From: Chloroflexota bacterium
GTDB taxonomy: Bacteria > Chloroflexota > UBA11872
Direction: 5' to 3'
NCBI GenBank assembly: GCA_022825895.1
Contig: JAJDVX010000042.1
Coordinates: 6,525-70,524, forward strand
DNA: 64,000 bases
Below, one piece after another: positions 5,677-62,561 of this stretch. Position 1 is the first letter of the stretch; every line of letters starts with the position of its first letter. Both the position numbers and the translations under genes were made by a program. The notes under the pieces are model-generated. The model saw nothing but the letters and a program-made list of their open reading frames with translations. It was not told the origin of the DNA and searched no databases.

Positions 5677-7149
5677 TCACGCGTCGTTCGGAGTCGCCGC
5701 CCAGCCGCGGGCGCGCTGGACGGCTCGACGCCAGGTGGGGCGATCGATGGCGAGGGTCTCCAGGCCAGGCTCGAACAGCGCTGGTGCGGGGCGAAGCGAG
5801 CGCAGCTCGTCCAGACCGGACCAGACGCCCTCGGCCAGGCCGGCCAGGTACGCGGCGCCAAGGGCGGTGGTTTCGATGTCCGCCGGCCGGGCGACCGTGC
5901 GGGCGGCGCTGGCGGCCTGGAGTTGCAGGAGCAGGTCGTTGGCGGCGGCGCCGCCGTCGACGAGCAGTTGGCCGGTGAGCGCGGGCATGAGTTCCAGGAC
6001 GTCCTGAACCTGGTGGACGATGGCTTCGAGGGCGGCGCGGGCCAGGTGAGGAGCGGTGACACCGCGCGTGAGACCAAGAATTGCGCCGCGAGCGTCGGGA
6101 TCCCAGTAGGGTGCGCCCAGGCCAGTGAAGGCGGGGACAATCACCGCGCCTCCTGTATCGGGCACGGCGCGCGCCAGGGTCTCGATTTCGGGGGCGGACT
6201 CTATCAATCCCAGTTCGTCTCGCAGCCATTGCACCAGCGCGCCGCCGGTGAACACGCTGCCCTCGTAGGCGTAGGTCAAGCCGTCGGGCCGCCCCAGCGC
6301 GACGGTGGTGAGCAGGTGGTCAATGTCCGGCGGGCGCGTGTCGCCGGCGTGCTGGAGGAGAAAACAGCCGGTGCCGTACGTCACCTTGGCGGCGCCGGGC
6401 GCTACGCCGAGGTGGCCGAAGAGGGCGGCTTGTTGGTCTCCGGCAATGCCACTGATGGGTGTCCCCGGGGCGACCGGGGCGTCGACGCCGGCGACGGAAC
6501 ACCGGCCACTTGAGGGCACGATCTCGGGCAGGGACCGCGCGGGGATTCCGAGTAGCTGGAGCATATCGTTCGACCAGCAACCGGTCTCCACGTCCATCAG
6601 CAGGGTCCGCGAGGCGTTGGTGGCATCGGAGAGATGCGCGCCGCCCGACAGGCGAGCAATCAGCCAGGCGTCCACGGTTCCGAAGCGCAGGCGGCCGGCG
6701 TCGCGGGCCGCGGCGACCTCGGGCACGTGATCCAGCATCCAGGCAAACTTGCCGGCACTGAAATAGGGGCTGGGGCGCAGGCCGGTGACGGCGCGAACAG
6801 CGTCGCCGTGGCCGGTAGTTTCCAGTTCGGTCATCCGGGGCGCGGTGCGGACGTCCTGCCAGACGATGGCCGGTCCCAGCGGTTGGAGCGTTGCGGAGTC
6901 CCAGGCGACGGCGGTCTCGCGCTGGTTGGTGATGCCAACAGTGGCGACCGCGCCGGGGGGCGTCGCGGCGAGCGCCTGGCGCGCGCTTCGGCACACGCCC
7001 TCCCAGATCTGGTTGGGGTCGTGCTCAACCCAGCCGGGCCGGGGATAGCCCTGGTTCACCGGGGCGTAGGCGCGTCCGACGATGCGGGCCTGGGCGTCGA
7101 CAACCAGGGTGGTGGTGCCGGTGGTGCCCTGGTCGATGGCGAGAATCAC
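5677..7149 (-). CDS. glpK: Glycerol kinase
   Basis: 490 aa. MILAIDQGTTGTTTLVVD, FGTVDAWLIARLSGG, full FGGY architecture typical of GlpK. Confidence 0.9.
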   Translation of the reverse strand: MILAIDQGTTGTTTLVVDAQARIVGRAYAPVNQGYPRPGWVEHDPNQIWEGVCRSARQALAATPPGAVATVGITNQRETAVAWDSATLQPLGPAIVWQDVRTAPRMTELETTGHGDAVRAVTGLRPSPYFSAGKFAWMLDHVPEVAAARDAGRLRFGTVDAWLIARLSGGAHLSDATNASRTLLMDVETGCWSNDMLQLLGIPARSLPEIVPSSGRCSVAGVDAPVAPGTPISGIAGDQQAALFGHLGVAPGAAKVTYGTGCFLLQHAGDTRPPDIDHLLTTVALGRPDGLTYAYEGSVFTGGALVQWLRDELGLIESAPEIETLARAVPDTGGAVIVPAFTGLGAPYWDPDARGAILGLTRGVTAPHLARAALEAIVHQVQDVLELMPALTGQLLVDGGAAANDLLLQLQAASAARTVARPADIETTALGAAYLAGLAEGVWSGLDELRSLRPAPALFEPGLETLAIDRPTWRRAVQRARGWAATPNDA

Positions 7150-7232
7150 GGAGGTGCGACCGCCAGGCTGGCGAGGCAGGGGTACGGTAGCATCGGGCCC
7201 GCGCGTCCGTACGGGGCGCCAAAGGGGGGCGA

Positions 7233-7817
7233 GTGGTCCTGAGCGATCGGGCTCTACGCGAGGCGATCGCGTCAGGCCGTCTGGAAATCAAGCCGCTCGA
7301 CGCAACCGCGATTCAGCCTTCGAGCATCGACCTGCGGCTTGGGCATGTGTTCCGGGTCTTCGTGAATCAGACCGAGACACACATCGATCCGAAGCTGAGC
7401 CAGCCGGACCTCACCGAGGAAGTCGAAGTATCCGCAGGCTCCAGCTTCGTCCTCCATCCGGGTGAATTCGTACTCGCGGGAACCGTGGAGACCATCCAGA
7501 TGCCGAACGACCTCGTGGGCCGCATTGAGGGCAAGAGTTCACTGGGGCGGCTAGGATTGATGGTGCACAGCACCGCGGGCTACGTGGACCCAGGATTTCG
7601 GGGCAGTTTGACGCTGGAGTTGTCGAATCACGCCAACCTGCCCATCCTGCTGTGGCCCGGCATGCGGGTCAGTCAACTTTCGGTCATGCAGCTCACGAGC
7701 CCGGCGGAACGTCCGTACGGCTCGCCCGGGCTGAACAGCAAGTATCAGGACCAGCAGGGGTCGACCCCCAGCCGGTCGCATCTTGGATTCGCCGTCCGCG
7801 ACACCCGCACGGTTTAG
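7233..7817 (+). CDS. dcd: dCTP deaminase
   Basis: 194 aa. SSIDLRLG...VLHPGEFVLAGTVE...GRIEGKSSLGRLGLMVH are diagnostic of Dcd/dUTPase-fold deaminases. Confidence 0.9.
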   Translation: MVLSDRALREAIASGRLEIKPLDATAIQPSSIDLRLGHVFRVFVNQTETHIDPKLSQPDLTEEVEVSAGSSFVLHPGEFVLAGTVETIQMPNDLVGRIEGKSSLGRLGLMVHSTAGYVDPGFRGSLTLELSNHANLPILLWPGMRVSQLSVMQLTSPAERPYGSPGLNSKYQDQQGSTPSRSHLGFAVRDTRTV

Positions 7818-7826
7818 GAGTAACCC

Positions 7827-8312
7827 ATGGCAGAAGCCGCCGATCAGTCCGTAGCAGCCACCGGTAGCGAGGAACCCTTCCTCGAGTCGTCTGGGGGCGT
7901 GATCTATCGCCAGAAGAACGGCCAGGTTCAGGTGGCCGTGGTCCAGACGCAGCGCGGGGCCTGGGTCTTGCCCAAAGGCGCCGTCGAGCCGGGCGAAGCG
8001 CCGAAAGACGCGGCGGTGCGCGAGGTGTTGGAGGAAACCGGCATCGTGGGCGAAGTCGTGGACGACCTTGGCGAGATTCGCTACGAAGTCCGACCGGATC
8101 TCTGGACGGGGTTTGTGCCGAAGGTCGTGCATCAGTACCTGCTGCGGTCCACCGGCGGGAGCATTCGTCCGGACCCGGCCGAGCACGTGGAAGCGCGCTG
8201 GGTCCCGATGCCGGACGCGGTGCGCATGCTGCATCACGTGAACGAACGGACCATCATGCTGCGCGCGGAAGATCTGCTGAGTCGCGGCGAACCCGGGAGC
8301 GCGGGTGCCTGA
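7827..8312 (+). CDS. NUDIX hydrolase
   Basis: 161 aa. Nudix box GAVEPGEAPKDAAVREVLEETGI. Confidence 0.8.
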   Translation: MAEAADQSVAATGSEEPFLESSGGVIYRQKNGQVQVAVVQTQRGAWVLPKGAVEPGEAPKDAAVREVLEETGIVGEVVDDLGEIRYEVRPDLWTGFVPKVVHQYLLRSTGGSIRPDPAEHVEARWVPMPDAVRMLHHVNERTIMLRAEDLLSRGEPGSAGA

Positions 8313-9918
8313 GGCCCGCGGCAGGCGGCCACCCGGCCGCCTGTTGTCGTTGGTTGCCGCGTTCGGGCTCGCGTTTGTCTTTCTCGGCGGCGGCGACGCC
8401 GGACCAGCCAAGCCGTCGGCACATGGAACGCTGCGGATTGAGGGTTCGGAACCAGTCTCCCTGGATCCGGTGCACGTGCGAGACACAGGGGCCGGCGCGT
8501 ACGTCCAGGAGATCTTTGCCGGGCTGACGCGGATTGGACCGGATCTGTCGGTGAGTCCCGACCTGGCTTCGGGTTGGACGGTGAGTTCGGACGGTCTGGT
8601 CTATACGTTTACGATTCGTCCCGAGGCCAGGTTTCACGACGGACGACCGCTGACGGCGGACGATGTGCTGTGGTCGTGGGCCAGGGCGCTCAGTCCAGAC
8701 ACGGGATCACTTGCAGGGCCCGTGTTTCTGGGAGACATCCAGGGAGCGGCGGCCTACGCGGCCGGCGAGGCAGCCACCGTCTCAGGACTGCGCGTCGTCG
8801 GATCGCACGGGATCGAAGTCACGCTGGAATCCGCCCGCTCGTTTTTTCCGAGCAAGCTGAGCGCCGGTCCGACCCTCATCGTGGATCGACACAACGTCGC
8901 GAAGGGCGATGCGTGGTGGCGGTCGCCGAACGGGTCGGGTCCCTACAGGCTCGAGGCGTGGCAACCGGAATCGCGCATCACGCTGCGGCGCGCCGACACG
9001 GCATCCTGGCTGTCGGGCGGACCGGCGGTGGTGGAGTTTCATCAGCTGGACGTGGGCGAGGACCTGCTGCTGTTCGAACGCGACGAGCTTGATCTGGTCG
9101 CTATTGGCGGATCGGACCTGGATCGGTTTCGGGATCCCAATGAGCCGCGCGGCGGGCAACTCGTGAGTACGCCGGATCTGGCCTTTCACTACGTCGGGTT
9201 CAACACGACGCTCGCGCCGCTGCACGACGAGCACGTGCGGCGGGCCCTGGCGTTGGCGACCGATCGAGCCTTCATCAATGAGGTGGTGCTGACCGGCACG
9301 CAACGGGAGGCGAAGGGTGTCATTCCGCCAGGCTTGCCGGGGCATCGACCCGACTTCGAGGGGCTTTCGTTTAACATAGCGGCGGCGGAGGCGGAACTGG
9401 CGAAGTCACGGTACGGCGACGCCGACGCCGTGCCGCAGATCACCGTCGTCGCGCCCGGGGAGGGTCTCTCCGGAAATCCGTTCCTGGAGTTTGTGATCCG
9501 TCCATGGCGAACGGACCTGGGCCTGGATGTGGTGATCGAGGTGCGCTCGTTCGACGATCTGGTTGAGACGCTGGACGACCCGGGCCACGACATTCAGGCG
9601 TTCTTCCTGGGGTGGTCCGCGGACTTTCCCGACGCCTCCAACTTCACCGACGAGTTGTTCGGATCAGACCGGCCCGACAATGCGTGGCGATTTACGGATG
9701 CGCTGGTTGACGACCTGATCACGAAGGCGCGACTGGCCACGTCGGACGAGGAGCGGCTTCGCCACTACGGGGCCATCGAGGAACGCGTGATTTCGCAGGC
9801 GGTGCTGATTCCGCTTATGTTCTACGTGTCGCACGAACTCGTGCAGCCCTGGGTGGAAGGCTATGTCGGACGTCCGATGACCCGCGAATGGCTTACCGAA
9901 CTGACCATCACCAACTAG
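8305..9918 (+). CDS. ABC transporter substrate-binding protein, family 5 (peptide/nickel type)
   Basis: 537 aa. N-terminal hydrophobic signal region, SBP_bac_5-like body (GTLRI, LDPVHVRDTGA, GLTRIGPDLSVSPDLASGWTVSSDGLVYTFTIRPEARFHDG). Confidence 0.8.
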   Translation: MPEARGRRPPGRLLSLVAAFGLAFVFLGGGDAGPAKPSAHGTLRIEGSEPVSLDPVHVRDTGAGAYVQEIFAGLTRIGPDLSVSPDLASGWTVSSDGLVYTFTIRPEARFHDGRPLTADDVLWSWARALSPDTGSLAGPVFLGDIQGAAAYAAGEAATVSGLRVVGSHGIEVTLESARSFFPSKLSAGPTLIVDRHNVAKGDAWWRSPNGSGPYRLEAWQPESRITLRRADTASWLSGGPAVVEFHQLDVGEDLLLFERDELDLVAIGGSDLDRFRDPNEPRGGQLVSTPDLAFHYVGFNTTLAPLHDEHVRRALALATDRAFINEVVLTGTQREAKGVIPPGLPGHRPDFEGLSFNIAAAEAELAKSRYGDADAVPQITVVAPGEGLSGNPFLEFVIRPWRTDLGLDVVIEVRSFDDLVETLDDPGHDIQAFFLGWSADFPDASNFTDELFGSDRPDNAWRFTDALVDDLITKARLATSDEERLRHYGAIEERVISQAVLIPLMFYVSHELVQPWVEGYVGRPMTREWLTELTITN

Positions 9919-46958: not shown

Positions 46959-47032
46959 TCTAGCGGAAGGCGGAGCCTTCCTTGAGCTTGTCGAAGGGCC
47001 ACTCAAAGCAGTCGAAAGCCCCTCTTAAACCC

Positions 47033-48646
47033 ATGCCTACCGCCTACCGCACCGTCATCGGTCTGGAAACCCACGTCCAACTCCGCACCCGCAGCAAGAT
47101 GTTCTGCGGCTGCGCCGCCGACTACGCCAACGCCCGGCCCAACACCCACGTCTGCCCCGTCTGCCTGGGCATGCCCGGCGTCCTGCCCGTCATCAACCGC
47201 GAAGCCGTGGACCACACCATCCGCACCGGCCTGGCCCTCAACTGCGAGATTCCCGAATACGCCAAGTTCGACCGCAAGAACTACGCCTATCCCGACCTGA
47301 TGAAGTGGTACCAGATTTCCCAGTACGACCTCCCGCTCTGCATCGACGGCCACTTCGACGTCGAGGTGAACGGCGCAACCACCCGCGTTGGCATCACCCG
47401 CGTCCACCTGGAAGAGGACACCGCCCGCCTGACCCACGTAACCTCCGCCGACGGCGCCCCGGCCAGCCTGATCGACGTCAATCGCTCCGGCGCGCCGCTC
47501 ATGGAAATCGTCTCCGAGCCGGACATCCAGACGCCCGTCGAAGCCATGGCCTACGGCGAGAAGCTGCGCGCCCTGCTTCGCTGGATCGGCGTTTCTACCG
47601 CCAATATGGAGGACGGCGCCCTGCGCATCGACGCCAACATCTCAGTCTGGCCCCAGGGCGAACCGATCGGCGACGTCAAGGTCGAAGTCAAGAACATGAA
47701 CTCCTTCCGGTCGCTGGGCCGCGCCCTGGCCTTCGAAATCGAGCGCCAGACCGCCCGGCGCGAGCGCGGCGAACCGATCGAGCAGGAAACCCGCGGCTGG
47801 GACGAGACTTCAGGCACAACCCGCTCCCAGCGAACCAAGGAATACGCCCACGACTATCGCTACTTCCCCGAACCCGACCTGCCGCCCCTACACGTCACAC
47901 GTCAACGCGTCGACACCCTTCGCGCCGCCCTCCCCCGCATGCCCGACCAGGTCGCCGCCGACCTGCTCCAACAAGGCGCCCCCGAGGCCGACATCGCCGA
48001 ACTCGTCCAGGACCGTCCCCTCACCGACTACACCCTCGCCGTCATCGAAGCTGGCGCTTCCGCCGGCGAGGCCGTCACCTGGATCGTCCACGAACTCCGC
48101 CGCGCCCTCAACGCCCACACCGCCACCCGCCGTTCCCGCGAAAGCGGGAGCCCATCCGCTCTTCCTCCCTCTCCTGGGGGAGAGGGTTGGGGTGAGGGGT
48201 CTTCCGAGCAACCAACGCTCGGGTTAGGCAAAGGCCTCCAGGAAGGAAAGGACGGGAGTCAGGGTCGGCCGCCCCCCAACCGCCCAAGCGCAGGAACCAT
48301 CATCCCCATCCCTCCAGCTGAAATCGCCTCGCTCCTAGAATTCCGCGCCCAGGGCGCCGTCAGCAGCACCATGGCCGGCGAAGTCCTCGACGAAATGTTC
48401 GCCACCGGCAAGTCAGCACGGGCCATCGTGGAGGCCCGCGGCCCCCAGATCAGCGGCCAGGACGAACTCCTCGCCATCGCCCGCCAGGTCATTGAAGAGA
48501 ATCCCCAGGCCGTCCAGGACTACCGCGACGGCAAGGGCCGCGCCATCCAGTACCTCATGGGCCAGGTCATGCGCATCACCCGCGGCAAAGCCAACCCGGG
48601 CGCCGTAAGCGCGCTCATCCGTACCGAACTCGACGGCGCCAAATAA
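47033..48646 (+). CDS. gatB: Asp-tRNA(Asn)/Glu-tRNA(Gln) amidotransferase subunit B, with a ~55-aa repeat-derived in-frame insertion
   Basis: Internal ATG ([17 protein letters not shown]). GatB catalytic core and C-terminal YqeY-like tail. An extra segment in the linker before the tail is encoded by repeat copy C. Confidence 0.88.
48156..48238. repeat. Repeat copy C of the MITE-like element, located inside the gatB reading frame
   Basis: ccgctcttcctccctctcctgggggagagggttggggtgaggggtcttccgagcaaccaacgctcgggttaggcaaaggcctc. More than 85% identical to copies B and D. Read in frame as ...[33 protein letters not shown]... Confidence 0.75.
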
Positions 48647-48904: not shown

Positions 48905-49183
48905 ATGGAGCACACCACATCGCAACGCACCTGGACCGTCGCCGAGGCCAAGGCCAAGCTGTCCGAGGTCCTGCGGCTCGCCGAGGAAGAAGGGCCCCAA
49001 CGCATCGGCCTGCGCCGGCCCTTCGTTGTCGTGCCCGAAGCGCTTTGGGACGCCAGGCAAGCGCGCGACAGGCACTTGGGCCGGTGGCTGCTTGAAAACG
49101 TGCCAAGGGGCCTGAACTGGGAAGTCCCCCGTGACCGGCGATCCGATAGGGCGGTTCCCTTTTCGGAAGAAGACGAACGGTGA
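48905..49183 (+). CDS. Type II antitoxin, Phd/YefM-like (VapB partner)
   Basis: Internal ATG with AGGAG 8 nt upstream. MEHTTSQRTWTVAEAKAKLSEVLRLAEEEGPQRI... Stop overlaps the vapC GTG start. Confidence 0.7.
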   Translation: MEHTTSQRTWTVAEAKAKLSEVLRLAEEEGPQRIGLRRPFVVVPEALWDARQARDRHLGRWLLENVPRGLNWEVPRDRRSDRAVPFSEEDER

Positions 49184-49599
49184 CGGGGTTTCTCCTGGAC
49201 ACGAACGTCATTTCCGAATTGACCAGGGACGAACCCGATTCGCGAGTGGTCCGGTTTCTCGACGACGAAGGCGACTTATGGCTGTCGTCCGTCGTCGTGT
49301 ACGAGATGGAATATGGCCTTGCGACCCTTCCCCAGGGGCGCCGCGCGGCAAGGTTGCGCGCTTTGCAAGCGAATATCCTCGCCGCCTTTGCAGGCCGGCT
49401 CCTGTCCTTGGATCAATCCGGCGCCCGCTGGTCAGCCGAGCTCCGAGCGCAGGCACGCCACGTCGGGCGGACCATCGACGTCGGTGACGCCCTCATCGCC
49501 GGCACTGCCAGAGCGCACGGCCTGGCCCTCGCCACCCGCAACATCCGCGACTTCCAGGGAATGGACATCCACCTCGTCAACCCCTGGGACTACCCATAA
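49180..49599 (+). CDS. vapC: Type II toxin VapC (PIN domain ribonuclease)
   Basis: 139 aa. GTG start. LLDTNVISEL...D...acidic PIN residues...ATRNIRDF. Confidence 0.85.
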   Translation: MTGFLLDTNVISELTRDEPDSRVVRFLDDEGDLWLSSVVVYEMEYGLATLPQGRRAARLRALQANILAAFAGRLLSLDQSGARWSAELRAQARHVGRTIDVGDALIAGTARAHGLALATRNIRDFQGMDIHLVNPWDYP

Positions 49600-49966
49600 C
49601 GGTCTTCGCCCACGCGCACTCCCAGAACGCCGCCACCCGCCCTTCGTCCGCGCCCCCCGTTCGTGGTCAGCCTGTCCTGAGCTTGTCGAAGCGGACGGGC
49701 CAGAGTCTTCGGCGGCCCGTGTCGAACCACAAAGGCCCAGCATCCAACCCTCCCAGACAGTCCCCTCCGTCATTCCGGAGGCTTCACCCGGAGTCCAGGG
49801 CCCTCAACCTGCAACCTGTGCCTCGGCGCCCGTCAGACGTCCGAGCGAACTAGTTAGACCATTCCTGGTACCGCGCCATTCCGCCCCGCGTATCGCTCCA
49901 CGCTCCAACGCCTTCCTCCGACCAGCCCACGTATCATGCCCGCGCCAACAGTGAGGGCGGATCACG

Positions 49967-52588
49967 ATGGCTAGACGGGCAGGTTGCGAACCGGCCTACG
50001 ACGCTGCCCAACGCTGGGTCGACGCAGCCTTACGCAAGGACGACTCGCTCTTCACCCCTGGCCACCCAATCTGGTCACTGCACAACCTCTATGACTTCCG
50101 CAAGCGAATATTCGATGACTCCGGACCGTCTCACGGAGGGTTTTATCGTCGATTCGAGCACCAACTCAGAGATGCACCATCCGATACTATTCAAATTGCC
50201 GCCGAAATCCTCTACGTGTACTTTCTGATCGCCGACCAGCGTGCCATACGAGGAACCACAAAGAGGCAACGGATCCGGGAAGTCATTAGCTGGGCTCCCA
50301 CTGCCCTGGAGGTCCCTGCCAATCTAATCGAGTCCGATATCGCAATCGATTCTGGAATAATGAATCCAGGAGCCGCGTCCCAGACGACTATCCACGCCCA
50401 AGTCCATATGATTGCTGAATTTGTATTGCACTGGAAGCAGCTTCCTGAAAGCGATCGTAGAGACTCCCTATCAGATCCTTGGGGTTTCTTGCAGGCCGTC
50501 CGATCGGTCCAAGTTCCCAGAGCCCAACCACAAGCGGAAGCGTTGCTGCATCTCGTCCATCCAGATTCATTCGAACCAAGTATGAGGAATGATAAGGGAC
50601 AGATTAGATCATCGTTTAACGATTCCTTGATTGCTCAGGCTGATGACGTTGATAGAGATTTATTCACAATACGTGAGCAACTGACCGGCATATCAAGCAT
50701 TTACAGAGAAGGTTTCGACTTTTACTCGCCTGAGATACATTTCGTTTGGAGTTCAGGATGGACCAAATTAGAACAATTCGTTCGCTGGGGAAATCGTTTC
50801 TTGGAGCATCCCAGCTTTGTTGAACTCGAGATTGACATCAAGCTCAGTCCTGCAGACCGCCTCAAACAGGCTCGATCTGCACTGGAATCTGGAGCAGACA
50901 ATTGGCTTGCCCTGCTAGAGGAAGCCTTCAAGAATCATGCTCTAGTGAGGTTTGACTCACGTGACGCATTTATCAAGTGGTGTAAGGAGAATGAGTCTGA
51001 CGCAAAGTCCGCTCTTCGGGAATTATGGAACGATCAAGCCGGCATCGTCGAATCAGTTCGATCTTTCTCGTCGCAGTTTCCAATGAGCGTCGTTCGCGGA
51101 GTAGGCACACGGACAAGGTTGATTTCGTTTCTAGCGATGGCCATTGATCCACGCCGATACCCTATATACGGGTACTCGCTCTTCCAGAATGCATACAACC
51201 TGGTCGGACACGATCCACCGGAAGATAGTGCTGACGAGGCTGACGTCTACTCCCATGCCCTCAGATTCCTGGACACCGTGCTGGACGAAGCAAAGAAGCA
51301 TGAACTTCACTTGCCGGATCGTCTGTACGCCCAGTCGGTGCTCTGGTCAATCACACGACCCGACCGATACGAGACGATCCTCCAGAAGGCTGAGCACGAA
51401 GCTTTTCGTCGATACCGTGGCGACGTTATAGCCCCGAGTCTCACGTTTGAGGAGCTTGTAGAAAATCAACGATTCGTCCAGAACCGCGAAATCACGGCCA
51501 TTAGCCTGCCCAACGCAAGCGACGGAAGCGGGGATCTGACATATGCGCTTACTCCACCACCCCCCGCCGGACTCAACTTCGATTCAATTGCCCGCACCCT
51601 GACCGGTACACCATCGGCAACGCAGCCAGCCACGACCTACATCTACACGGCAGTCGACGGGGACGGTGCCAGCGCCACGCAGGATTTCTCGATTACGGTG
51701 TCCGCTGAGACGCTTCATGACCTCGCTGCCCGGCTCTATTGGGACGCCGAGCACCTCCAAAACATCCAGCGCCTGATCGAGGACAAGGGCCAAATCGTCT
51801 TCTACGGCCCGCCGGGCACCGGCAAGACCTTCGTCGCCCAGGAACTCGCCAGTCACTTCGCCCGCGCCGAAGGCTCAACCGACCTCGTCCAATTCCACCC
51901 GTCGTACGCCTACGAAGACTTTGTGGAGGGCTTCCGTCCAGACACGATCAGGGACCAACCAGGCTTCAAACTACGCGAAGGCCCCCTCAAGCGCATTGCC
52001 GACAAAGCCCGCGCCAATCCCAACGCAACCCACGTCCTGGTCATCGACGAAATCAACCGCGGCAACGTCGCCCGGGTCTTCGGCGAGCTCTACTTCCTGC
52101 TCGAATACCGCGACCGCGAGATATCGCTCCAATACTCCGAGCAACAATTCGCACTCCCCAAGAATCTTTGGTTCATCGCCACCATGAACACCGCCGACCG
52201 ATCCATCGCCCTGGTGGACGCCGCCCTCCGCCGCCGCTTCCACTTCGTCGAGTTCTCACCGCACACGCCGCCCGTCCAGGGCCTGCTAACCCGCTGGCTT
52301 GAAACGAGAGAGTCCGACCTTCAATGGGTCGCCAGGTTGCTGGACCTGGCCAACGACAAACTCAGCGACCGCCACCTGGCCATCGGCCCCAGCCACTTCA
52401 TGCAAAAGAATCTTGACGAAACATGGGTCGAGTTGATCTGGAACCACTCGATCTACCCGTATGTTGAAGAACAACTCTTCGGGGATTACGACCGCCTCCA
52501 AGATTTTAAGTTCGAGAATCTCAAGCGTGCGGCGCAGCGGCAGGATCGGAGTCCAGGCAGCGGCGATGACACGCCTGACGCTGACTGA
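49967..52588 (+). CDS. mcrB: McrB-family AAA+ GTPase with a ~570-aa uncharacterised N-terminal region
   Basis: 873 aa. The C-terminal 300 aa (GPPGTGKTF Walker A, VLVIDEINRGNVARVFGELYFLLEYR, FIATMNTADRS, RRRFHFVEF) are an McrB-type GTPase. The N-terminal region has no confident match and has lower GC. Confidence 0.8.
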   Translation: MARRAGCEPAYDAAQRWVDAALRKDDSLFTPGHPIWSLHNLYDFRKRIFDDSGPSHGGFYRRFEHQLRDAPSDTIQIAAEILYVYFLIADQRAIRGTTKRQRIREVISWAPTALEVPANLIESDIAIDSGIMNPGAASQTTIHAQVHMIAEFVLHWKQLPESDRRDSLSDPWGFLQAVRSVQVPRAQPQAEALLHLVHPDSFEPSMRNDKGQIRSSFNDSLIAQADDVDRDLFTIREQLTGISSIYREGFDFYSPEIHFVWSSGWTKLEQFVRWGNRFLEHPSFVELEIDIKLSPADRLKQARSALESGADNWLALLEEAFKNHALVRFDSRDAFIKWCKENESDAKSALRELWNDQAGIVESVRSFSSQFPMSVVRGVGTRTRLISFLAMAIDPRRYPIYGYSLFQNAYNLVGHDPPEDSADEADVYSHALRFLDTVLDEAKKHELHLPDRLYAQSVLWSITRPDRYETILQKAEHEAFRRYRGDVIAPSLTFEELVENQRFVQNREITAISLPNASDGSGDLTYALTPPPPAGLNFDSIARTLTGTPSATQPATTYIYTAVDGDGASATQDFSITVSAETLHDLAARLYWDAEHLQNIQRLIEDKGQIVFYGPPGTGKTFVAQELASHFARAEGSTDLVQFHPSYAYEDFVEGFRPDTIRDQPGFKLREGPLKRIADKARANPNATHVLVIDEINRGNVARVFGELYFLLEYRDREISLQYSEQQFALPKNLWFIATMNTADRSIALVDAALRRRFHFVEFSPHTPPVQGLLTRWLETRESDLQWVARLLDLANDKLSDRHLAIGPSHFMQKNLDETWVELIWNHSIYPYVEEQLFGDYDRLQDFKFENLKRAAQRQDRSPGSGDDTPDAD

Positions 52589-53795
52589 GCACCAACCGCG
52601 CGAGAATGTTCGTCTCACGTCCGAGCAACTTGACACGCTCCTGCGCTTGGTGCGCTCGGTCGACGTGTCGCCAACGTCCACGAGCAACACCTGGATTCTG
52701 AGGCCTGGCTCCCAGGTAGGCGTCGTTCGCCTGCCCGATCTCACCGTCGAAATCCGGCCCAAGCTCCCCATCCACCGCGTCCTCTTCCTGGCCTCGTACG
52801 CCCTCGGCGCCTTCAAGCTCAAGCCCGACATCGCGGACATCGATCGATCACCCGACCTGGTGGAAGCCATGGTCCAGCTATTTCACGCCGCCGTCCGGCA
52901 GGCCACTGGGCGCGGCTTATTGCAGGGCTATAGGACTCACGAGGAAACGCTGAACGTCGTCCGCGGGCGCATTCGCATTGAGGAGCAACTGCGTCGGCGC
53001 TTCGGCATCCCCGTCCCCATTGAGGTCCGCTACGACGAATTCACGCCTGACATCCCGGCCAACCGCATCCTCAAGGCCGCCGTGGGCCGGCTGGCCTGGC
53101 TGCCGCACCGCTCCCGCGACACGCGCCGGCTGCTGAGTGTCATGCGCGCCGTCTTGGCCAACGTGTCGGACGTCGAATATCGCTCGAACGATATCCCCAA
53201 CATTCCCATCACCCCGCTGAACACCCACTACCGGCCCGCTCTGGCCCTGGCCCGACTCATCCTCAAGTCGGGCGCTGTCGAACTCGCGGCTGGCAAGGTC
53301 GAATCCGCCTCGTTCCTGATCGACATGAACAAAGTGTTCGAAGATTTCGTGGTCGTCGGCCTGCGCGAAGCGCTCGGTCTGACGGAATACACCTTTCCCC
53401 AGGAAGCACACGGCCGCGAACTCTGGCTGGCTGCGGGCCAGAAAGTACGGCTAAAGCCGGACATCTCCTGGTGGCAAGACAACCGTTGCATATTCGTCGG
53501 CGACGCCAAGTACAAGCGCACCACCGCTCACGGCGCCCAGAACCACGACATCTATCAGGCCCTCGCCTACGCCGTCGCCGCCGGCCTGCCTGGCGCCCTC
53601 CTTATCTACGCTCACGACGAACAGGAACGCGTCGCCCCTGCCGTCTACGACATCCCGCACGCCAACAAGCGCATTGAGGTCATGGTCCTGGACCTACGCG
53701 GCTCGCGGGATGAACTCATGCAACGCATTCACGCCCTCGCCCACAAGGTTCGCGCAAACGTGGCGCCGGTCACGGCTGCCCACCTCGCCGCCTGA
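52566..53795 (+). CDS. mcrC: McrC-family nuclease subunit (PD-(D/E)xK)
   Basis: Internal ATG overlapping the mcrB 3' end by 23 nt. D...IFVGDAKYK PD-(D/E)xK core. Typical McrC length and position. Confidence 0.8.
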   Translation: MTRLTLTEHQPRENVRLTSEQLDTLLRLVRSVDVSPTSTSNTWILRPGSQVGVVRLPDLTVEIRPKLPIHRVLFLASYALGAFKLKPDIADIDRSPDLVEAMVQLFHAAVRQATGRGLLQGYRTHEETLNVVRGRIRIEEQLRRRFGIPVPIEVRYDEFTPDIPANRILKAAVGRLAWLPHRSRDTRRLLSVMRAVLANVSDVEYRSNDIPNIPITPLNTHYRPALALARLILKSGAVELAAGKVESASFLIDMNKVFEDFVVVGLREALGLTEYTFPQEAHGRELWLAAGQKVRLKPDISWWQDNRCIFVGDAKYKRTTAHGAQNHDIYQALAYAVAAGLPGALLIYAHDEQERVAPAVYDIPHANKRIEVMVLDLRGSRDELMQRIHALAHKVRANVAPVTAAHLAA

Positions 53796-54121
53796 GCCAG
53801 CCACGGCCTCGGGCGCGTCGATGCCCAACAGCGGCAGGCAACTCCTAAGGATTCCTTAGTTGTTCGAACCGCGGGCACACCCAGTCAAACGACACCTCGG
53901 CCACGACAGCTCGAATCCGTCGTCGCGATTGGTCTCGGGATCAGAGCCCGAGGCCACCTGCCCTGGCGCCGCTAGACTCCGGCAACTTGTGCAGAATCTG
54001 CACAAGTTCGAACCGAGAGCGGTTGAGTCCATCTCCCGCGAGATCCAACTACCGAGGAATCCTCGGTAGTTGCAAACGACGCCGACCGGCTCGCCCACCG
54101 CCCCTCATCGTCGCCGCTACC

Positions 54122-54439
54122 TCAGATCGGGACTTCCCTCAGTTCCCCGGGGCCTATGTGGTCAAGCGCCGTACGGATCTCCTCCACGCGCAGCTGCACC
54201 TTGGGCCACGCGGTAGAAAGCAGAACCACCACGGCCAGCCTTCGGCCGGCAAGGTTCTGCTGATATCGCAAATTCTGATCGGTAGTGATCAGGACGTCGT
54301 AGCCCGCCTGTTCGGCGCTGTCGATCAGGTCCCCGTTATCCATATCCGACCAGCCGCGCTCCGCTGCCGTGTCCACGACATGACTGTCCAAGTGACGACG
54401 CAGCGGCGCCGGTGTGCCCTGATCGAACAGAATCCTCAC
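54122..54439 (-). CDS. DUF5615 PIN-like domain protein (putative toxin partner of DUF433)
   Basis: 105 aa. MRILFDQGTP...DSAEQAGYDVLITTDQNL pattern typical of DUF5615. Confidence 0.7.
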   Translation of the reverse strand: MRILFDQGTPAPLRRHLDSHVVDTAAERGWSDMDNGDLIDSAEQAGYDVLITTDQNLRYQQNLAGRRLAVVVLLSTAWPKVQLRVEEIRTALDHIGPGELREVPI

Positions 54440-54663
54440 GGTTGCGCGGGAACTCGCAGAGCCTCCGCTTCGTGTTCCAGCACCGCTCGAACCTGCCAGG
54501 CTTCAACGCCCGGGAACCATTCCAGAAACTGGCCAACCGTAGCGCCGCTCTCCAGGTTCTCGAAGAGGGCGGAAACCGGCACCCGCGTTCCGGCGAACGT
54601 CCACGCCCCGCTGAGCTTTCCGGGACGACATTCCACCGCCGGGCACCTCTCCCAGTCGGTCAC
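54436..54663 (-). CDS. DUF433 domain protein (putative antitoxin)
   Basis: 75 aa. PGKLSGAWTFAGTRVPVSALFENLESGATVGQFLEWFP matches the DUF433 core. Stop overlaps the downstream DUF5615 start. Confidence 0.7.
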   Translation of the reverse strand: MTDWERCPAVECRPGKLSGAWTFAGTRVPVSALFENLESGATVGQFLEWFPGVEAWQVRAVLEHEAEALRVPAQP

Positions 54664-54880: not shown

Positions 54881-56041
54881 ATGGCCAGCCGCGAATCCCA
54901 TTTCGCGGCCGACCGCTTACCTGCGCCCTCGGGGCGCACGCCGGAAGACCTGGCCGCGTGGGTGGCGCTGAGTTCGGTTCCCGGGCTTGGGTCGGCCACG
55001 TTGTGGAACCTCATCCGCGCCTTCGGCGACCTCAGCCAGGCGTGGACTGCCAGCGCCGCCCGGCTCCAAGCCGCCGGCGCTTCGCCCGCCGTCGCCAGAG
55101 GCGTTGAGACCGCCCGTCGCGAAAAATCAGCCGACCACGCCTTGGAAGAGCTCGCCAAGCACGACGGCCGCGCCATCGCCTGGCACGACCCGGCCTATCC
55201 GGCCCAACTGCGCGAGATTCCCGACCCACCGCCGTTGATTTATGTCAAGGGCGACCTCGCCTGCGCCGGCTACCAGCGCAGCGTCGCCATCGTCGGCACC
55301 CGCCGCATGACCGCCTACGGCAAGCAAGTCACCGCCCAACTGGCCGGAACCCTGGCCCGCGCGGGCATCTGCGTCGTCAGCGGTATGGCCGCCGGCGTCG
55401 ATGGCGAAGCCCACCGCGCCGTGCTGGAATCCGAAGGCGCCACGGTCGCCGTTTGGGGCACCGGCCTGCACGAGATCTATCCCCGCGCCAACCGCCGCCT
55501 CGTCCCCCGCATTCTCGAGCGCGGCGCCATCGTCACCGAGTACCCCGTCGGCGTGCGCGGACTCCCCGAGAACTTCCCCCAGCGCAACCGCATCATCAGC
55601 GGCCTCTCGCTCGCCACCATCGTCGTCGAGGCCCCGCTCGAAAGCGGCGCCCTTCACACCGCCCGCTACGCCATCGAGCAGAACCGCGAGATCCTGGCCG
55701 TCCCGGGCAGCGTCTTCGCCGCCGCCAGCCGCGGAACCAACCGGCTCATCAACCGCGGCGAAGCCCGCGCCGTCACCTCCGCCGAGGACGTCCTCGAAGC
55801 CCTGCAAATCGCCGTCAGCCCCGAGCAGTTGGCAATGCCCCAACTCGTCAAACCCACCGCCGAGGAACGCGCCGTTCTTCGCCACCTCACTACCGACCCC
55901 ATGCACATCGACGAACTGGTGCGCCTGGCCGCCCTGCCCGCCTTCCGCGTTTCCGCCCTGCTCGCCGTCATGGAAGTCAAGGGCCTCGTCCGCAACCTCG
56001 GCAGCGCCCACTACGTCACCGCCCGCCCACATGCCAACTGA
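54881..56041 (+). CDS. dprA: DNA-processing protein DprA (Smf)
   Basis: 386 aa. SAM-like N-terminus, Rossmann-like core (VAIVGTRRMTAYG...VVSGMAAGVDGEAH...AVWGTGL), C-terminal winged-helix region. Confidence 0.85.
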   Translation: MASRESHFAADRLPAPSGRTPEDLAAWVALSSVPGLGSATLWNLIRAFGDLSQAWTASAARLQAAGASPAVARGVETARREKSADHALEELAKHDGRAIAWHDPAYPAQLREIPDPPPLIYVKGDLACAGYQRSVAIVGTRRMTAYGKQVTAQLAGTLARAGICVVSGMAAGVDGEAHRAVLESEGATVAVWGTGLHEIYPRANRRLVPRILERGAIVTEYPVGVRGLPENFPQRNRIISGLSLATIVVEAPLESGALHTARYAIEQNREILAVPGSVFAAASRGTNRLINRGEARAVTSAEDVLEALQIAVSPEQLAMPQLVKPTAEERAVLRHLTTDPMHIDELVRLAALPAFRVSALLAVMEVKGLVRNLGSAHYVTARPHAN

Positions 56042-60058: not shown

Positions 60059-61096
60059 TCACTTTCGGGCCTGGGTCAATACGTCCACTCCCTCGAATCC
60101 AATCACTACCAGGTCCTCGATCCGCACACCGCCCCAGCCCGGCAGGTAAATGCCCGGCTCGACCGACACCACTGCTCCGGCGTCCAGCACATTAGTGCCT
60201 CGCGGAGAGAGCGTGGGCGCTTCATGAATCTCAAGTCCTACGCCGTGGCCGGTGCCGTGACCGAAATACCCTCCGTAGCCCGCGTCGGTGATCACCTGGC
60301 GAGCCAGCCCATCGGCTTCGCGCCCCGTCATCCCGGCGCATGTTCCGGCCTCCGTCGCGACCTGCGCCTCCAGCACGATCGCGTATATCTCATCGAAACG
60401 GCCGTCGGCTTCGCCCGCCGTAAACGTCCGCGTGATGTCCGAGCAGTAGCCATCCAGCCGCACGCCGAGGTCAACGATCACCGGCTCGCCAGAGCCAATC
60501 GGTCGTGCGCCGGGCGAATGATGCGCCATCGCCGCGTTCGGCCCGCCGGCCACGATTGTCGGAAACGAGGGCCCATCGCCGGCCTCGCGAATCAGTCGTT
60601 CCAGCTCCAGCGACAACTCCCGCTCGGTCACTCCGGGTGAGACGGTCTCGCCCGCGGCCGCCATCACGTCGTCGGCCAGCCGCACCGCCTCACGCAGAGT
60701 GGCGAGTTCTGCGTCGTCCTTCACGACGCGCTGATCCTCAACCACACCGTCGAGCGGAATGACTGGCAATTCGCGCCCTTCATCGGCCAGTCGATCCACC
60801 AACTCACGGTGCTGCTTCAGCGACGTGTGCTCGGACTCGACACCCAGGCGTGCGATCGCCCTTTCGCCAATCCAGGCCGCAACCACTCCCAGCGTGTCCA
60901 CGTTTTCGATCACGTCGAATCCGGGAGCCTGTCGCGTCGCCTGCTCCGTGTAGCGAGCGTCCGTCACCAGCCGCCTGTCGTCCGCCGAGATCAGCAGCGT
61001 GGCGGCCGTCCCCGTAAAGCCACTCAGGTAGCGCCGATTTGCCTCGCCTGTCACCAACAGGGCGTCCACGCCTGATTCGTCCAGACGCGACGCCAA
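60059..61096 (-). CDS. M24 family Xaa-Pro aminopeptidase (PepP-like)
   Basis: 345 aa. Creatinase-N-like domain plus pita-bread fold with metal ligands (HGTGHGVGLEIHE, VVSVEPGIYLPGWGGVRIED). Confidence 0.85.
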   Translation of the reverse strand: MASRLDESGVDALLVTGEANRRYLSGFTGTAATLLISADDRRLVTDARYTEQATRQAPGFDVIENVDTLGVVAAWIGERAIARLGVESEHTSLKQHRELVDRLADEGRELPVIPLDGVVEDQRVVKDDAELATLREAVRLADDVMAAAGETVSPGVTERELSLELERLIREAGDGPSFPTIVAGGPNAAMAHHSPGARPIGSGEPVIVDLGVRLDGYCSDITRTFTAGEADGRFDEIYAIVLEAQVATEAGTCAGMTGREADGLARQVITDAGYGGYFGHGTGHGVGLEIHEAPTLSPRGTNVLDAGAVVSVEPGIYLPGWGGVRIEDLVVIGFEGVDVLTQARK

Positions 61097-61116
61097 CCGC
61101 TCGGTCCGAGCGGCCG

Positions 61117-62169
61117 TTAGTTCAGATAACGCTCGATGTTGCGTGTGTGTTCCTCCAGCGTCTCGGAAAAGGCGTGCGAACCATCGCCGCGAGCGACAAA
61201 GAAAATGTACGGGGTGGATTCGGGTCTGGCGGCCGCGATGATCGAGGCCAGCCCGGGTGCGGCAATTGGCCCCGGAGGCAACCCGTTGACCACATACGTA
61301 TTGTACGGAGACTGCGTCCGCAGGTCGTCACCGTCAATGTCCGGCTTCCACCAGCGCCCGCCCGGACCCGTGCGCCCAATCGCGTATTGGGCGGTCGGAT
61401 CCGCCTGCAGCGGAATCCCGCGCGCGAGGCGGTTGTGGAACACGCCAGAGATCACGGGTCGCTCCTCATCCAATACGGCCTCCCGCTCAATAATTGACGC
61501 GAGGGTGAGCAGATCATGGACCGACAAGCCGTTTCCCGCCGCATCCGCCCGGATTTCGGGTGTCACAACCTCGTCGAAGCGCCGCAGCATGCGTCGGATC
61601 AGATTGCTCGCGTTTGACGATCCGTCAATCTGGTACGTGTCGGGAAACAGATAGCCCTCCAGCGACTGACCCGCCGGCAGGCTGGCCAGGAAGTCGAAGT
61701 CCGACGCGAAGGCCGGTGCGCCCTCGCGTGCCAGTCGCAGGAACTCCAGATCGTCAATCTCGGTCTGATCGGCCAATCGTTCGGCGATCTCTTCCAGCCT
61801 CCAGCCTTCGGGAAAGGTCACCGTCTGGTCCACCGCGGTTGCCGTGCTCAGCGCGCGCACAATCTCATCAAGAGTCATGTCCGACCGAAGGAGGAAGGTT
61901 CCCTGGCGAAACGCCCCCTCCAGTCCACGACGTTCCACCAGCACCTGGAACAGGAGATCGCTGCGTATCAAGCTCGCCTCGCGCAACCCCTGGGCAATGT
62001 CAGACGCTGTCGCCCCAATCGGGATCGTGAAGGGCACGGTGCGCGCCGCGACAGGGGACGGCGAGTCAGCAAACCGGGCCGCCGCCGAATAGCCCAATAG
62101 CAGTACGCCGGCCAGCGTCAACAGTCCGATGCCAAACGCCTGCGTGATCGCACTTACGCGGCTCAGCAT
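61117..62169 (-). CDS. mltG: Endolytic murein transglycosylase MltG (YceG family)
   Basis: Internal start MLSRVSAIT. Single N-terminal TM, YceG motifs (LTLASIIEREA, LQADPT.QYA). Confidence 0.85.
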   Translation of the reverse strand: MLSRVSAITQAFGIGLLTLAGVLLLGYSAAARFADSPSPVAARTVPFTIPIGATASDIAQGLREASLIRSDLLFQVLVERRGLEGAFRQGTFLLRSDMTLDEIVRALSTATAVDQTVTFPEGWRLEEIAERLADQTEIDDLEFLRLAREGAPAFASDFDFLASLPAGQSLEGYLFPDTYQIDGSSNASNLIRRMLRRFDEVVTPEIRADAAGNGLSVHDLLTLASIIEREAVLDEERPVISGVFHNRLARGIPLQADPTAQYAIGRTGPGGRWWKPDIDGDDLRTQSPYNTYVVNGLPPGPIAAPGLASIIAAARPESTPYIFFVARGDGSHAFSETLEEHTRNIERYLN

Positions 62170-62561
62170 GTGGTCTGGCTCCTGAGGTAATCGAGCAACA
62201 GAATCTCGGCGGCACGCGCATCCACATCCGCGTCTCCCGCGCCATCCCGCCGGGCGGCCTGCGTGGTCAGACTCTCGTCCCGCCAAACAACAGGCTCGCT
62301 GCGGCCTTCAAGCAGTTTGGTTGCCCAACGCCGATTACGTACGGCCTGCGGGCTTTCGGATCCGTCAGTATTCAACGGCACGCCAATCACTATTGTTGCG
62401 CCAGGGTATGCGTCCAGAACGGCCTTGAGGGCGGTTGCGTCACGTATTCCGCCACGGCGGGTCACGACCTGTCGCACCGCCACAAACGCGCCGCTCGCAT
62501 CGGTCATAGCCACGCCGATTCGGCGTTCCCCCAGATCCAGCGCGCCCACCCGGCGGCCCAT
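62163..62561 (-). CDS. ruvX: Putative pre-16S rRNA nuclease / Holliday-junction resolvase-like RuvX (YqgF)
   Basis: Internal start MGRRVGALDLGERRIGVAMTD. RNase-H-like YqgF pattern (DERLTT, D...AAEILLLDY). Overlaps the mltG start by 7 nt. Confidence 0.85.
   Translation of the reverse strand: MGRRVGALDLGERRIGVAMTDASGAFVAVRQVVTRRGGIRDATALKAVLDAYPGATIVIGVPLNTDGSESPQAVRNRRWATKLLEGRSEPVVWRDESLTTQAARRDGAGDADVDARAAEILLLDYLRSQTTC

Follow-up and report, generated by a model that had tools for sequence, protein, structure and literature searches.

We analyzed a 64,000-nucleotide stretch of contig JAJDVX010000042.1 from a Chloroflexota bacterium (hereafter, the window), focusing on mcrB, the first gene of a predicted mcrBC restriction operon, whose 5′ part contains a block of low GC content. 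We conclude that this block is probably a specificity cassette that is old, undergoes recombination, and stays at a stable low GC content, and not a recent import. As shown below, its low GC content is shared by all closely related alleles, its history differs from those of the GTPase motor, the McrC nuclease, and the flanking host genes, and its synonymous divergence from the other closely compared member of its allele class equals that of its neighbors.

A single low-GC block within mcrB

Composition was analyzed in 1-kb sliding windows, in 1-kb bins, and by maximum-likelihood segmentation. Outside mcrB, the background GC content was 0.677 (standard deviation 0.022), and the lowest background window was 0.627. 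The window-wide minimum of 0.492 was found at position 50151 (z = −8.5). Similarly, the bin 50001–51000 showed a GC content of 0.501, whereas all other bins of the 64-kb window ranged from 0.579 to 0.732; thus, the patch is unique in the 64 kb, and no other stretch comes near it. Segmentation placed the low-GC block at 50070–51590, with a GC content of 0.511 compared to 0.654 across the surrounding 9 kb. A first-pass annotation made from the sequence alone had reported a sharp GC drop at 49960–51560 in the 5′ part of mcrB, quoting an AT-rich 55-mer that lies at 50584–50638. Our segmentation recovered almost the same coordinates, and the sliding-window GC and GC3 (GC content at third codon positions) profiles were far from the flat course that would have spoken against a drop. 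Although the drop is real, the word "sharp" does not suit its 3′ boundary, which is a ramp over the immunoglobulin (Ig)-like linker (codons ~500–580) without a sharp step.

The block is contained in a single open reading frame (ORF), whose parts are as follows.

49967..52588, + strand: mcrB, 873 amino acids (aa), comprising the N-terminal helical module, Ig-like linker, and McrB-type AAA+ GTPase (ORF, Pfam, NCBIfam McrB, PDB profile, and AlphaFold2 [AF2] model)
49967..50104, + strand: conserved 5′ stub, codons 1–46, GC3 0.72, near host-like (GC3 segmentation and allele identities)
50105..51619, + strand: low-GC3, hypervariable, class-structured segment, codons 47–551 (composition, between-class identity, quartet sites, and AF2 model)
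51464..51706, + strand: Ig-like beta-sandwich linker, residues ~500–580 (He_PIG match, E = 7.6e-11; AF2 beta strands at 501–579)
51734..52546, + strand: McrB AAA+ GTPase module, residues 590–860, GC3 0.79–0.80 (Pfam, motifs, and profile match)

The drop sits at synonymous positions. GC3 was 0.72 in codons 1–46, 0.52 in codons 47–551, and 0.78 in codons 552–873 by segmentation, which, together with the z of −8.5, places a compositional discontinuity inside one ORF, as expected of a mosaic gene. The lowest GC3 (0.38) was observed around codons 201–250, and GC3 climbed internally to 0.65–0.75 at codons 401–460, the best conserved part of the segment. GC1 was also reduced in the segment, but the effect was mainly at the third position. 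Other genes of the window showed GC3 values of 0.77–0.90. The earlier statement that the GTPase part and mcrC return to host-like composition holds nearly, but not fully: the AAA+ part (0.79–0.80) and mcrC (0.81) remained below the host level of 0.84–0.89. Codons 47–551 span most of subdomain A (residues 1–263), subdomain B (266–490), and part of the Ig linker, a layout in agreement with the earlier assignment of the low-GC block to the N-terminal, presumed sensor, region.

All of these sequences were assembled from metagenomes, and the NCBI annotation begins at Met391, leaving the low-GC part uncalled. Both facts would fit an artefact, either a chimeric assembly or a noncoding or decayed stretch misread as a gene. 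However, the 873-aa ORF recurs identically on four independent metagenome contigs (the window and L002–L004), the reading frame is intact in all 11 alleles described below, the ratio of nonsynonymous to synonymous substitution (ω) is 0.15–0.21, and the AF2 model of the N-terminal part reaches a predicted local distance difference test score (pLDDT) of 91.5. For practical purposes, these results refute an artefact, to which we attach a negligible probability.

Low N-terminal GC3 is shared by the clade

The allele set consisted of 11 sequences, the window and ten relatives (L001, L085–L091, L094, and L095), from the closest clade of high-GC Chloroflexota, whose hosts showed a flank GC of 0.65–0.68. 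GC3 of the N-terminal segment was 0.52–0.67 in 11/11 alleles, compared to 0.75–0.83 for the AAA+ part, 0.74–0.86 for mcrC, and 0.84–0.89 for host genes. The low N-terminal GC3 spans at least five allele classes. A comparison with orthologous loci, which had been proposed for checking the presence or absence of the N-terminal segment, found it in all related loci.

An origin of the low GC in the domain family as such was also considered and rejected, since full-length homologues from Actinomycetota showed host-like N-terminal GC3 values of 0.75–0.96; therefore, the dip belongs to this Chloroflexota clade and not to the protein family. In bins of 30 codons, the nine-allele mean GC3 correlated with the conservation of the amino acids (rho = 0.73, p = 2e-5), a correlation driven mainly by the contrast between the N- and C-terminal parts. 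Invariant codons showed higher GC3 than variable ones, at 0.64 versus 0.54 in the N segment and 0.83 versus 0.68 in the AAA+ part.

These values also bear on the idea that low GC is selected for a sequence-level function unrelated to module exchange, such as slower translation for co-translational folding, less mRNA structure, damped expression of a toxic enzyme, or amino-acid composition. Such selection would account for a stationary state common to all alleles, for the lower GC1 of the segment, and for the higher GC3 of invariant codons in both halves, which is expected under codon-choice selection. However, the actinobacterial GC3 of 0.75–0.96 means that the fold needs no AT-rich coding, and the effect is mainly at the third position and therefore cannot be explained by amino-acid composition. 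Furthermore, a promoter and terminator consensus scan of 49.5–54.9 kb showed no enrichment, with no signal inside the low-GC segment. We thus regard a sequence-level function as an improbable cause.

Divergent allele classes reassort relative to the motor

Next, the alleles were compared part by part. Protein identity of the N-terminal segment within classes was 78% for the window and L001, 85% for L090 and L091, 96% for P0010 and P0011, and 58–67% among L087, L085, and L086 (58–74% when P0003, P0005, and others are included). Between classes, only 43–50% protein identity remained, with saturation at synonymous sites. The AAA+ parts were grouped otherwise: the window, L087, L091, and L088 shared 81–86% identity, and L090, L085, and L086 shared 82–84%. 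At the nucleotide level, L087 and L088 were 0.45–0.60 identical to the window in the segment and 0.80–0.93 in the motor.

A quartet test was then employed, in which informative amino-acid sites were counted among the window, L001, L091, and L090, taking codons 47–551 as the N segment. In the N segment, the grouping of the window with L001 and of L091 with L090 was backed 139:0:0. In contrast, the counts were 3:8:3 for the AAA+ part, 5:17:6 for McrC, and 9:13:3 for DprA, SecD, and SecF combined, favoring the grouping of the window with L091 and of L001 with L090. Reassortment was also observed inside one class: distances at 4-fold degenerate sites were 0.74 in the N segment and 0.29 in the AAA+ part for L087 and L094, and 0.99 and 0.35, respectively, for L095 and L086. 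The quartet sites, identity matrices, and 4-fold distances thus agree that the two sides of the junction have different histories. Because the history of the N segment is incongruent with that of motor and nuclease, this gene family does reassort domains at its specificity end, and the domain shuffling that the first-pass annotation had suggested for a mosaic gene stands.

The left boundary of the variable segment is conserved. Mean pairwise amino-acid identity among alleles was 0.71 over the first 30 codons, and codons 1–46 showed 61–87% nucleotide identity among 8 of 9 alleles. Directly before the mcrB start lies the following element, which, together with the first ~46 codons, is common to all alleles, whatever gene lies upstream.

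49929..49966, + strand: conserved 38-nt upstream element, ACGTATCAT...GCCAAC..TGAGGGCGGATCACG, directly before the mcrB ATG (alignment of 9 alleles)

This element (ACGTATCATGCCCGCGCCAACAGTGAGGGCGGATCACG) aligned in 9/9 alleles compared, including those in unrelated genomic contexts. From its position and conservation, it may act as the left homology arm of the variable segment. It probably also contains a promoter −10 motif, the 5′ untranslated region, and a ribosome-binding site; a simple sigma-70 scan did not call it. When the window was searched by tblastn for silent spare cassettes of any N-terminal class, none was found.

A co-occurring strain (L003/L004) is ~96% identical overall (534 mismatches in 13.8 kb). 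At window positions 49750–52970, it matches with 100% identity throughout mcrB and for the first 400 nt of mcrC, and ~49 single-nucleotide polymorphisms follow in the remaining mcrC; the perfect match marks recent recombination, or a sweep, over mcrB. Further tracts of 99.6–100% identity to this strain lie at 54000–54500 and 60500–62500.

Age of the N-terminal segment and its GC flux

Distances at 4-fold degenerate sites were calculated with the F81 model, using dprA, secD, and secF as the host reference. Between the window and L001, host genes differed by 0.56, the N segment by 0.60, the AAA+ part by 0.61, and McrC by 0.57, and synonymous divergence by the NG86 method agreed. Therefore, the N segment, motor, nuclease, and host genes have co-diverged since the two genomes split. 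Between the window and L087, the values were 0.36 for host genes, 1.85 (saturated) for the N segment, 0.43 for the AAA+ part, and 0.42 for McrC; the comparison of the window with L091 came out much the same. Most simply, one class was kept in both the window and L001, and the lineages of L087 and L091 received others. Within classes, ω was 0.21 and 0.15 for the N segment and 0.27 and 0.29 for the motor, so that the N segment is under purifying selection no weaker than that on the motor. Fast, continuous positive selection as the main pattern was rejected on the same values.

An F81 amelioration calculation with the window and L001 alone still allowed parallel amelioration from an ancestor with GC3 of ~0.3, and therefore a polarized three-taxon test was added. 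Changes at 4-fold sites on the terminal branches of L087, L094, and L095 were polarized by parsimony with L085 as the outgroup. The N segment showed 8 changes from A or T to G or C (W→S) and 12 in the reverse direction (S→W), with 52 W and 56 S ancestral sites. Relaxation to the host GC3 of 0.85 predicts that ~84% of such changes are W→S, from which the observed split deviates with P ≈ 1e-5. Two other choices of outgroup and trio gave W→S to S→W ratios of 7:8 and 7:7. The composition of the N segment thus looks stationary, given the balanced flux and a GC3 that is uniform among classes of widely differing age. The search revealed no low-GC donor, and every close relative of the segment shares the same architecture and sits in a genome of 65–68% GC; relatives in lower-GC hosts reached only 34–37% identity.

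The first-pass annotation had read the drop as a sign that the sensor-coding region was gained, or exchanged, at a later date than the motor and nuclease, which would mean an import from a lower-GC donor with incomplete amelioration. The GC3 of 0.52 versus 0.78 inside one ORF and the incongruent N- and C-terminal histories in the family are what such an import would produce. However, the segment is not younger than its neighbors, as shown by its distance of 0.60 between the window and L001, which equals those of motor, nuclease, and host (0.61, 0.57, and 0.56), and by its presence in all related loci. In addition, low GC3 is common to 11/11 alleles of several classes, no W→S excess marks an ongoing amelioration (8 versus 12, from small counts and by parsimony), and no lower-GC lineage could be identified as donor among the closest matches. 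Recent import is therefore largely refuted, and we consider it very improbable.

Another form of import would be a continuing one, in which classes are re-supplied from an unsampled lower-GC reservoir of bacteria, plasmids, or phages and spread by recombination, so that GC3 never rises. Recombination tracts are frequent at the locus, and the synonymous saturation between classes means that they are far older than the host clade, which counts in favor of such a supply. Distant relatives with intermediate N-terminal GC3 also occur in Dehalococcoidia and Chloroflexota of 56–60% GC (L007, L018, and L092). In contrast, the within-class synonymous distances equal the host distances in two independent class pairs, which residence fits better, and the W/S flux within a class is balanced. 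Moreover, the lower-GC relatives are only 34–37% identical, and the gene is chromosomal, at a conserved site, with no mobile-element hallmarks adjoining the segment. We therefore judge continuing import to be unlikely, although less so than a single recent one.

The N-terminal helical module

The AF2 model of residues 1–495 (m82cd3fb48405) was all-alpha and confident (pLDDT 91.5; predicted template modeling score 0.84). Residues 1–495 matched no family in Pfam, NCBIfam, or PADLOC scans and showed no DUF3578/ADAM, EVE, or YTH match; a PDB profile search hit the AAA+ part only, and Foldseek of the N-terminal model against the PDB gave nothing with E < 1. Recurring non-significant Foldseek hints pointed to 8-oxoguanine DNA glycosylases (OGG1/HhH-GPD; five entries, probability 0.12–0.20) and were not relied on. 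They could be chance or, in the predicted model, a faint sign of a base-flipping, DNA-binding helical fold.

A word-indexed search with the N-terminal 500 aa returned 299 relatives, nearly all with the same full-length architecture; the module is always accompanied by the McrB AAA+ part. Exhaustive phmmer searches with the N-terminal region extended the family to 2152 clusters at 50% identity, and partial matches divided the region into subdomain A and subdomain B. Every one of the larger relatives tested that had a confident Pfam match has a McrB-type AAA+ part.

Two arrangements mark the module boundary as a natural break. In one relative (P0259, 770 aa), subdomain A is followed by an EVE domain (E = 1e-14), which replaces subdomain B, and then by the AAA+ part; this replacement suggests that subdomain B may occupy the reader position. 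In a relative of 59% GC (L092/L093, positions 6001–8414), the 526-aa N module and the 278-aa AAA+ GTPase have separate, adjacent genes, and the second gene begins with a GTG start overlapping the stop of the first (GTGA). The split arrangement was found on 14 contigs and is therefore a genuine split McrB. By these sequence comparisons, the segment is a portable module at the place where McrB enzymes carry their specificity domain. By analogy with those enzymes, it is plausible that the helical module recognizes modified DNA. With more than 2000 clusters and no structural match, it is a candidate new reader of DNA modifications.

Proposed history of the cassette

In the history that we propose, mcrBC is a long-term resident between gatCAB and dprA-secDF in this high-GC Chloroflexota clade. 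The comparisons show that codons ~47–551 of mcrB fall into several ancient classes of alleles, all with one homologous fold, and that these have been reassorted against motor, nuclease, and neighboring host genes. Reassortment probably took place by homologous recombination through conserved arms, with the upstream element and the first ~46 codons as the left arm and the AAA+ part and mcrC as the right arm. The N segment would set which modified DNA is recognized, and phages may maintain the classes through frequency-dependent selection. In their distribution, the classes resemble a trans-species polymorphism.

The weakest step concerns why low GC3 persists. The divergence between classes may bar the segment from homologous exchange, so that it would escape the GC-biased recombination or selection that holds other parts of the genome at GC3 of ~0.85. 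That blocked recombination removes GC-biased conversion or linked selection, leaving the 1.5-kb segment at GC3 of ~0.5 and its flanks at ~0.8, is a tentative suggestion that we hold with considerable doubt. If it is true, the locus would be a natural internal control in which recombination-associated bias, and not mutation, maintains the high GC of these genomes. The helical module would likewise be a new family of modified-DNA readers, polymorphic across species under phage pressure.

Several observations weigh against the old, stationary cassette and its mechanism. Within the N segment alone, GC3 and conservation were not significantly correlated (rho = 0.19). The pattern was observed in one clade only, and the link between class structure and low GC3 is therefore effectively based on n = 1. 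The three host reference genes adjoin the locus, so that recombination may have affected them as well, and the distances among hosts depart somewhat from a tree. The polarized counts are small (15–20 changes), parsimony is biased at such divergences, and the AAA+ control had almost no recoverable W ancestral sites. Finally, the helical module matches known reader domains in neither structure nor sequence, and its sensor role is assigned by analogy.

The old, recombining cassette nevertheless has consequences for how composition is interpreted. Here, "compositionally odd" and "recently transferred" come apart: the odd segment is old in its lineage and stationary, and therefore GC-based calls of islands or horizontal gene transfer inside defence genes can mislead. 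The alleles also document that, in a natural, uncultured clade, the specificity end of a Type IV restriction enzyme is exchanged within the gene in the manner of a cassette.

The mcrBC operon

The remaining features of the operon are as follows.

51806–51829, + strand: Walker A motif, GPPGTGKT
52187–52198, + strand: NxxD signature, NTAD
52566..53795, + strand: mcrC, 409 aa, GC3 0.81 (PF10117, NCBIfam McrC, and gene call in L002–L004)

In the mcrB product, Pfam detected AAA_5 at residues 610–758 (E = 1.5e-20) and He_PIG at 514–579 (E = 7.6e-11), and the AF2 model of the full product had a mean pLDDT of 87. The family profile matched the solved McrB motors of E. coli and Thermococcus with E~1e-65, 6hz4 and 7vsr among them (3e-65 for E. 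coli McrB 6hz4). The NCBIfam McrB model scored 136 bits, under its equivalog cut-off of 637, because only the motor aligns. Walker A (GPPGTGKT, 614–621), the Walker B region DEINR (694–698), and NTAD (741–744) were invariant among 44 homologues, as expected of a McrB-type GTPase; NxxD is the mark of the canonical McrB branch (PMC11090510). The Ig linker was found in some allele classes only and is missing in P0013, P0015, P0022, and similar proteins of 785–795 aa.

The start of mcrC overlaps the end of mcrB by 23 nt, and the partner McrC, with DUF2357 and a PD-(D/E)xK nuclease, thus lies directly downstream. McrC matched Pfam McrBC PF10117 with E = 2e-59 over residues 81–384 of a longer ORF. 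A GDAKYK motif is readable in it, and this region probably provides the catalytic residues. The earlier identification of the gene as mcrB with mcrC downstream was borne out by the motifs, AAA_5, PF10117, and the PDB profile. By these sequence features, the locus is a canonical McrBC (Type IV, modification-dependent) restriction operon, predicted to cleave modified DNA in a GTP-dependent manner.

In the NCBI record of the contig, the gene is a 483-aa protein from Met391 (P0142; window 51137–52588), and the low-GC 390 codons before it are uncalled. The compositional break probably misled the gene caller into this truncation. A real internal start (mcrB-S) is known in mcrB of E. coli, placed at the domain boundary. 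Met391, unlike that start, falls within a helical subdomain. Surveys relying on such truncated gene calls will miss the sensor domain.

Neighborhood of the locus

The operon has gatA, gatB, and a Phd/PIN pair on its left and two small genes, dprA, and secDF on its right. Those GatB homologues to which an organism name is attached belong to uncultured Chloroflexota.

48905..49599, + strand: Phd/VapB-like antitoxin and PIN (VapC-like) toxin pair, between gatB and mcrB (comparison with syntenic L087)
54122..54663, − strand: two small genes between mcrC and dprA, of 105 aa without an assigned family and 75 aa with DUF433 (locus comparison)
54881..56041, + strand: dprA, the conserved anchor on the right, with secD and secF after it (equal order in L001, L087, L090, and L091)

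mcrBC was located upstream of dprA-secDF at the matching place in five loci (the window, L001, L087, L090, and L091), and L087 additionally shares BNR_2, DUF899, and gatCAB on the left. The Phd/PIN pair is missing at the corresponding position in L087. The slot between mcrC and dprA is occupied by Fic/RhuM in L087, L090, and L091 and by Fic plus HicAB in L001. The slots flanking mcrBC thus vary among relatives, and the site behaves as a small defence and toxin–antitoxin islet between gatB and dprA.

At window ~49640–49900, an element of ~150 nt (CCGTCATTCCGGAGGC...CAACCTGC...GAGCGAAC.AG..AGACCA) was alignable only to L090 at ~7780–7990. At that intergenic place, L001, L091, and L087 keep the 3′ end or a remnant of an S-adenosylmethionine (SAM)-methyltransferase gene. 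The element may be a small repeat or a rearrangement footprint at the left edge of the locus. The longest ORF of gatB (46982–48646) encodes 554 aa from a TTG, ~70 codons beyond the 482-aa L087 orthologue; public calls range from 482 to 538 aa, and its start codon is uncertain.

Comparison with known systems

In Type I hsdS, target-recognition domains are shuffled: variable segments lie between conserved recombination arms and occur as discrete classes, and the enzymatic subunits are conserved. The cassette described here resembles hsdS in its variable specificity segment, conserved arms, and discrete allele classes. However, it belongs to another protein family, with no inverted or silent spare cassettes and no recombinase nearby, and exchange appears to take place between genomes and not by programmed switching.

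The locus resembles EcoKMcrBC of E. coli K-12 in its two-gene operon, with mcrB upstream of and overlapping mcrC, in the McrB-type AAA+ GTPase (Walker A, Walker B, and NxxD) paired with a PF10117 McrC, and in an N-terminal extension before the motor, where the specificity domain of E. coli McrB sits (PMC11090510, PMC3424535). Both are compositionally atypical for their hosts. However, the E. coli domain is a DUF3578/ADAM domain of ~160 aa, whereas the present module of ~490 aa is all-helical, is followed by an Ig linker, and matches it in neither sequence nor fold. Furthermore, the E. coli operon is uniformly low in GC (0.37–0.41; mcrB 0.40, mcrC 0.37; mcrB GC3 0.34 in the N-terminal part and 0.43 in the AAA+ part), whereas here the sensor segment alone is low.

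Cassette-like variation of restriction genes is also described for the enterobacterial immigration control region, and with it Milkman's "bastions of polymorphism", in the account of Sibley & Raleigh 2004 relayed by PMC12707154. As far as that account extends, both loci have conserved anchors, specificities replaced between close relatives, variation thought to be selected, and divergence far above that of the flanks. In the immigration control region, however, whole genes or systems are exchanged, whereas in the present locus exchange is confined to a segment inside one gene, bounded by its conserved 5′ stub and the AAA+ part, and all alternatives are homologous forms of one fold.

That McrB proteins vary in their N-terminal domains is well documented (PMC11090510), and homologues with other readers include the YTH-like one of Thermococcus gammatolerans, the B3-like LlaJI.R1, and EVE/PUA-like forms (Bell et al. 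2024, PMC11090510). The present family shares with them a GTPase and McrC that are conserved while the N-terminal specificity domains joined to them vary, and its relative P0259 carries an EVE domain. That census, however, covers unrelated folds across distant lineages, whereas here divergent alleles of one fold occur in a single clade at one site. What differs here is that divergent alleles of one fold are exchanged within a clade at a single site, marked by a stable compositional break.

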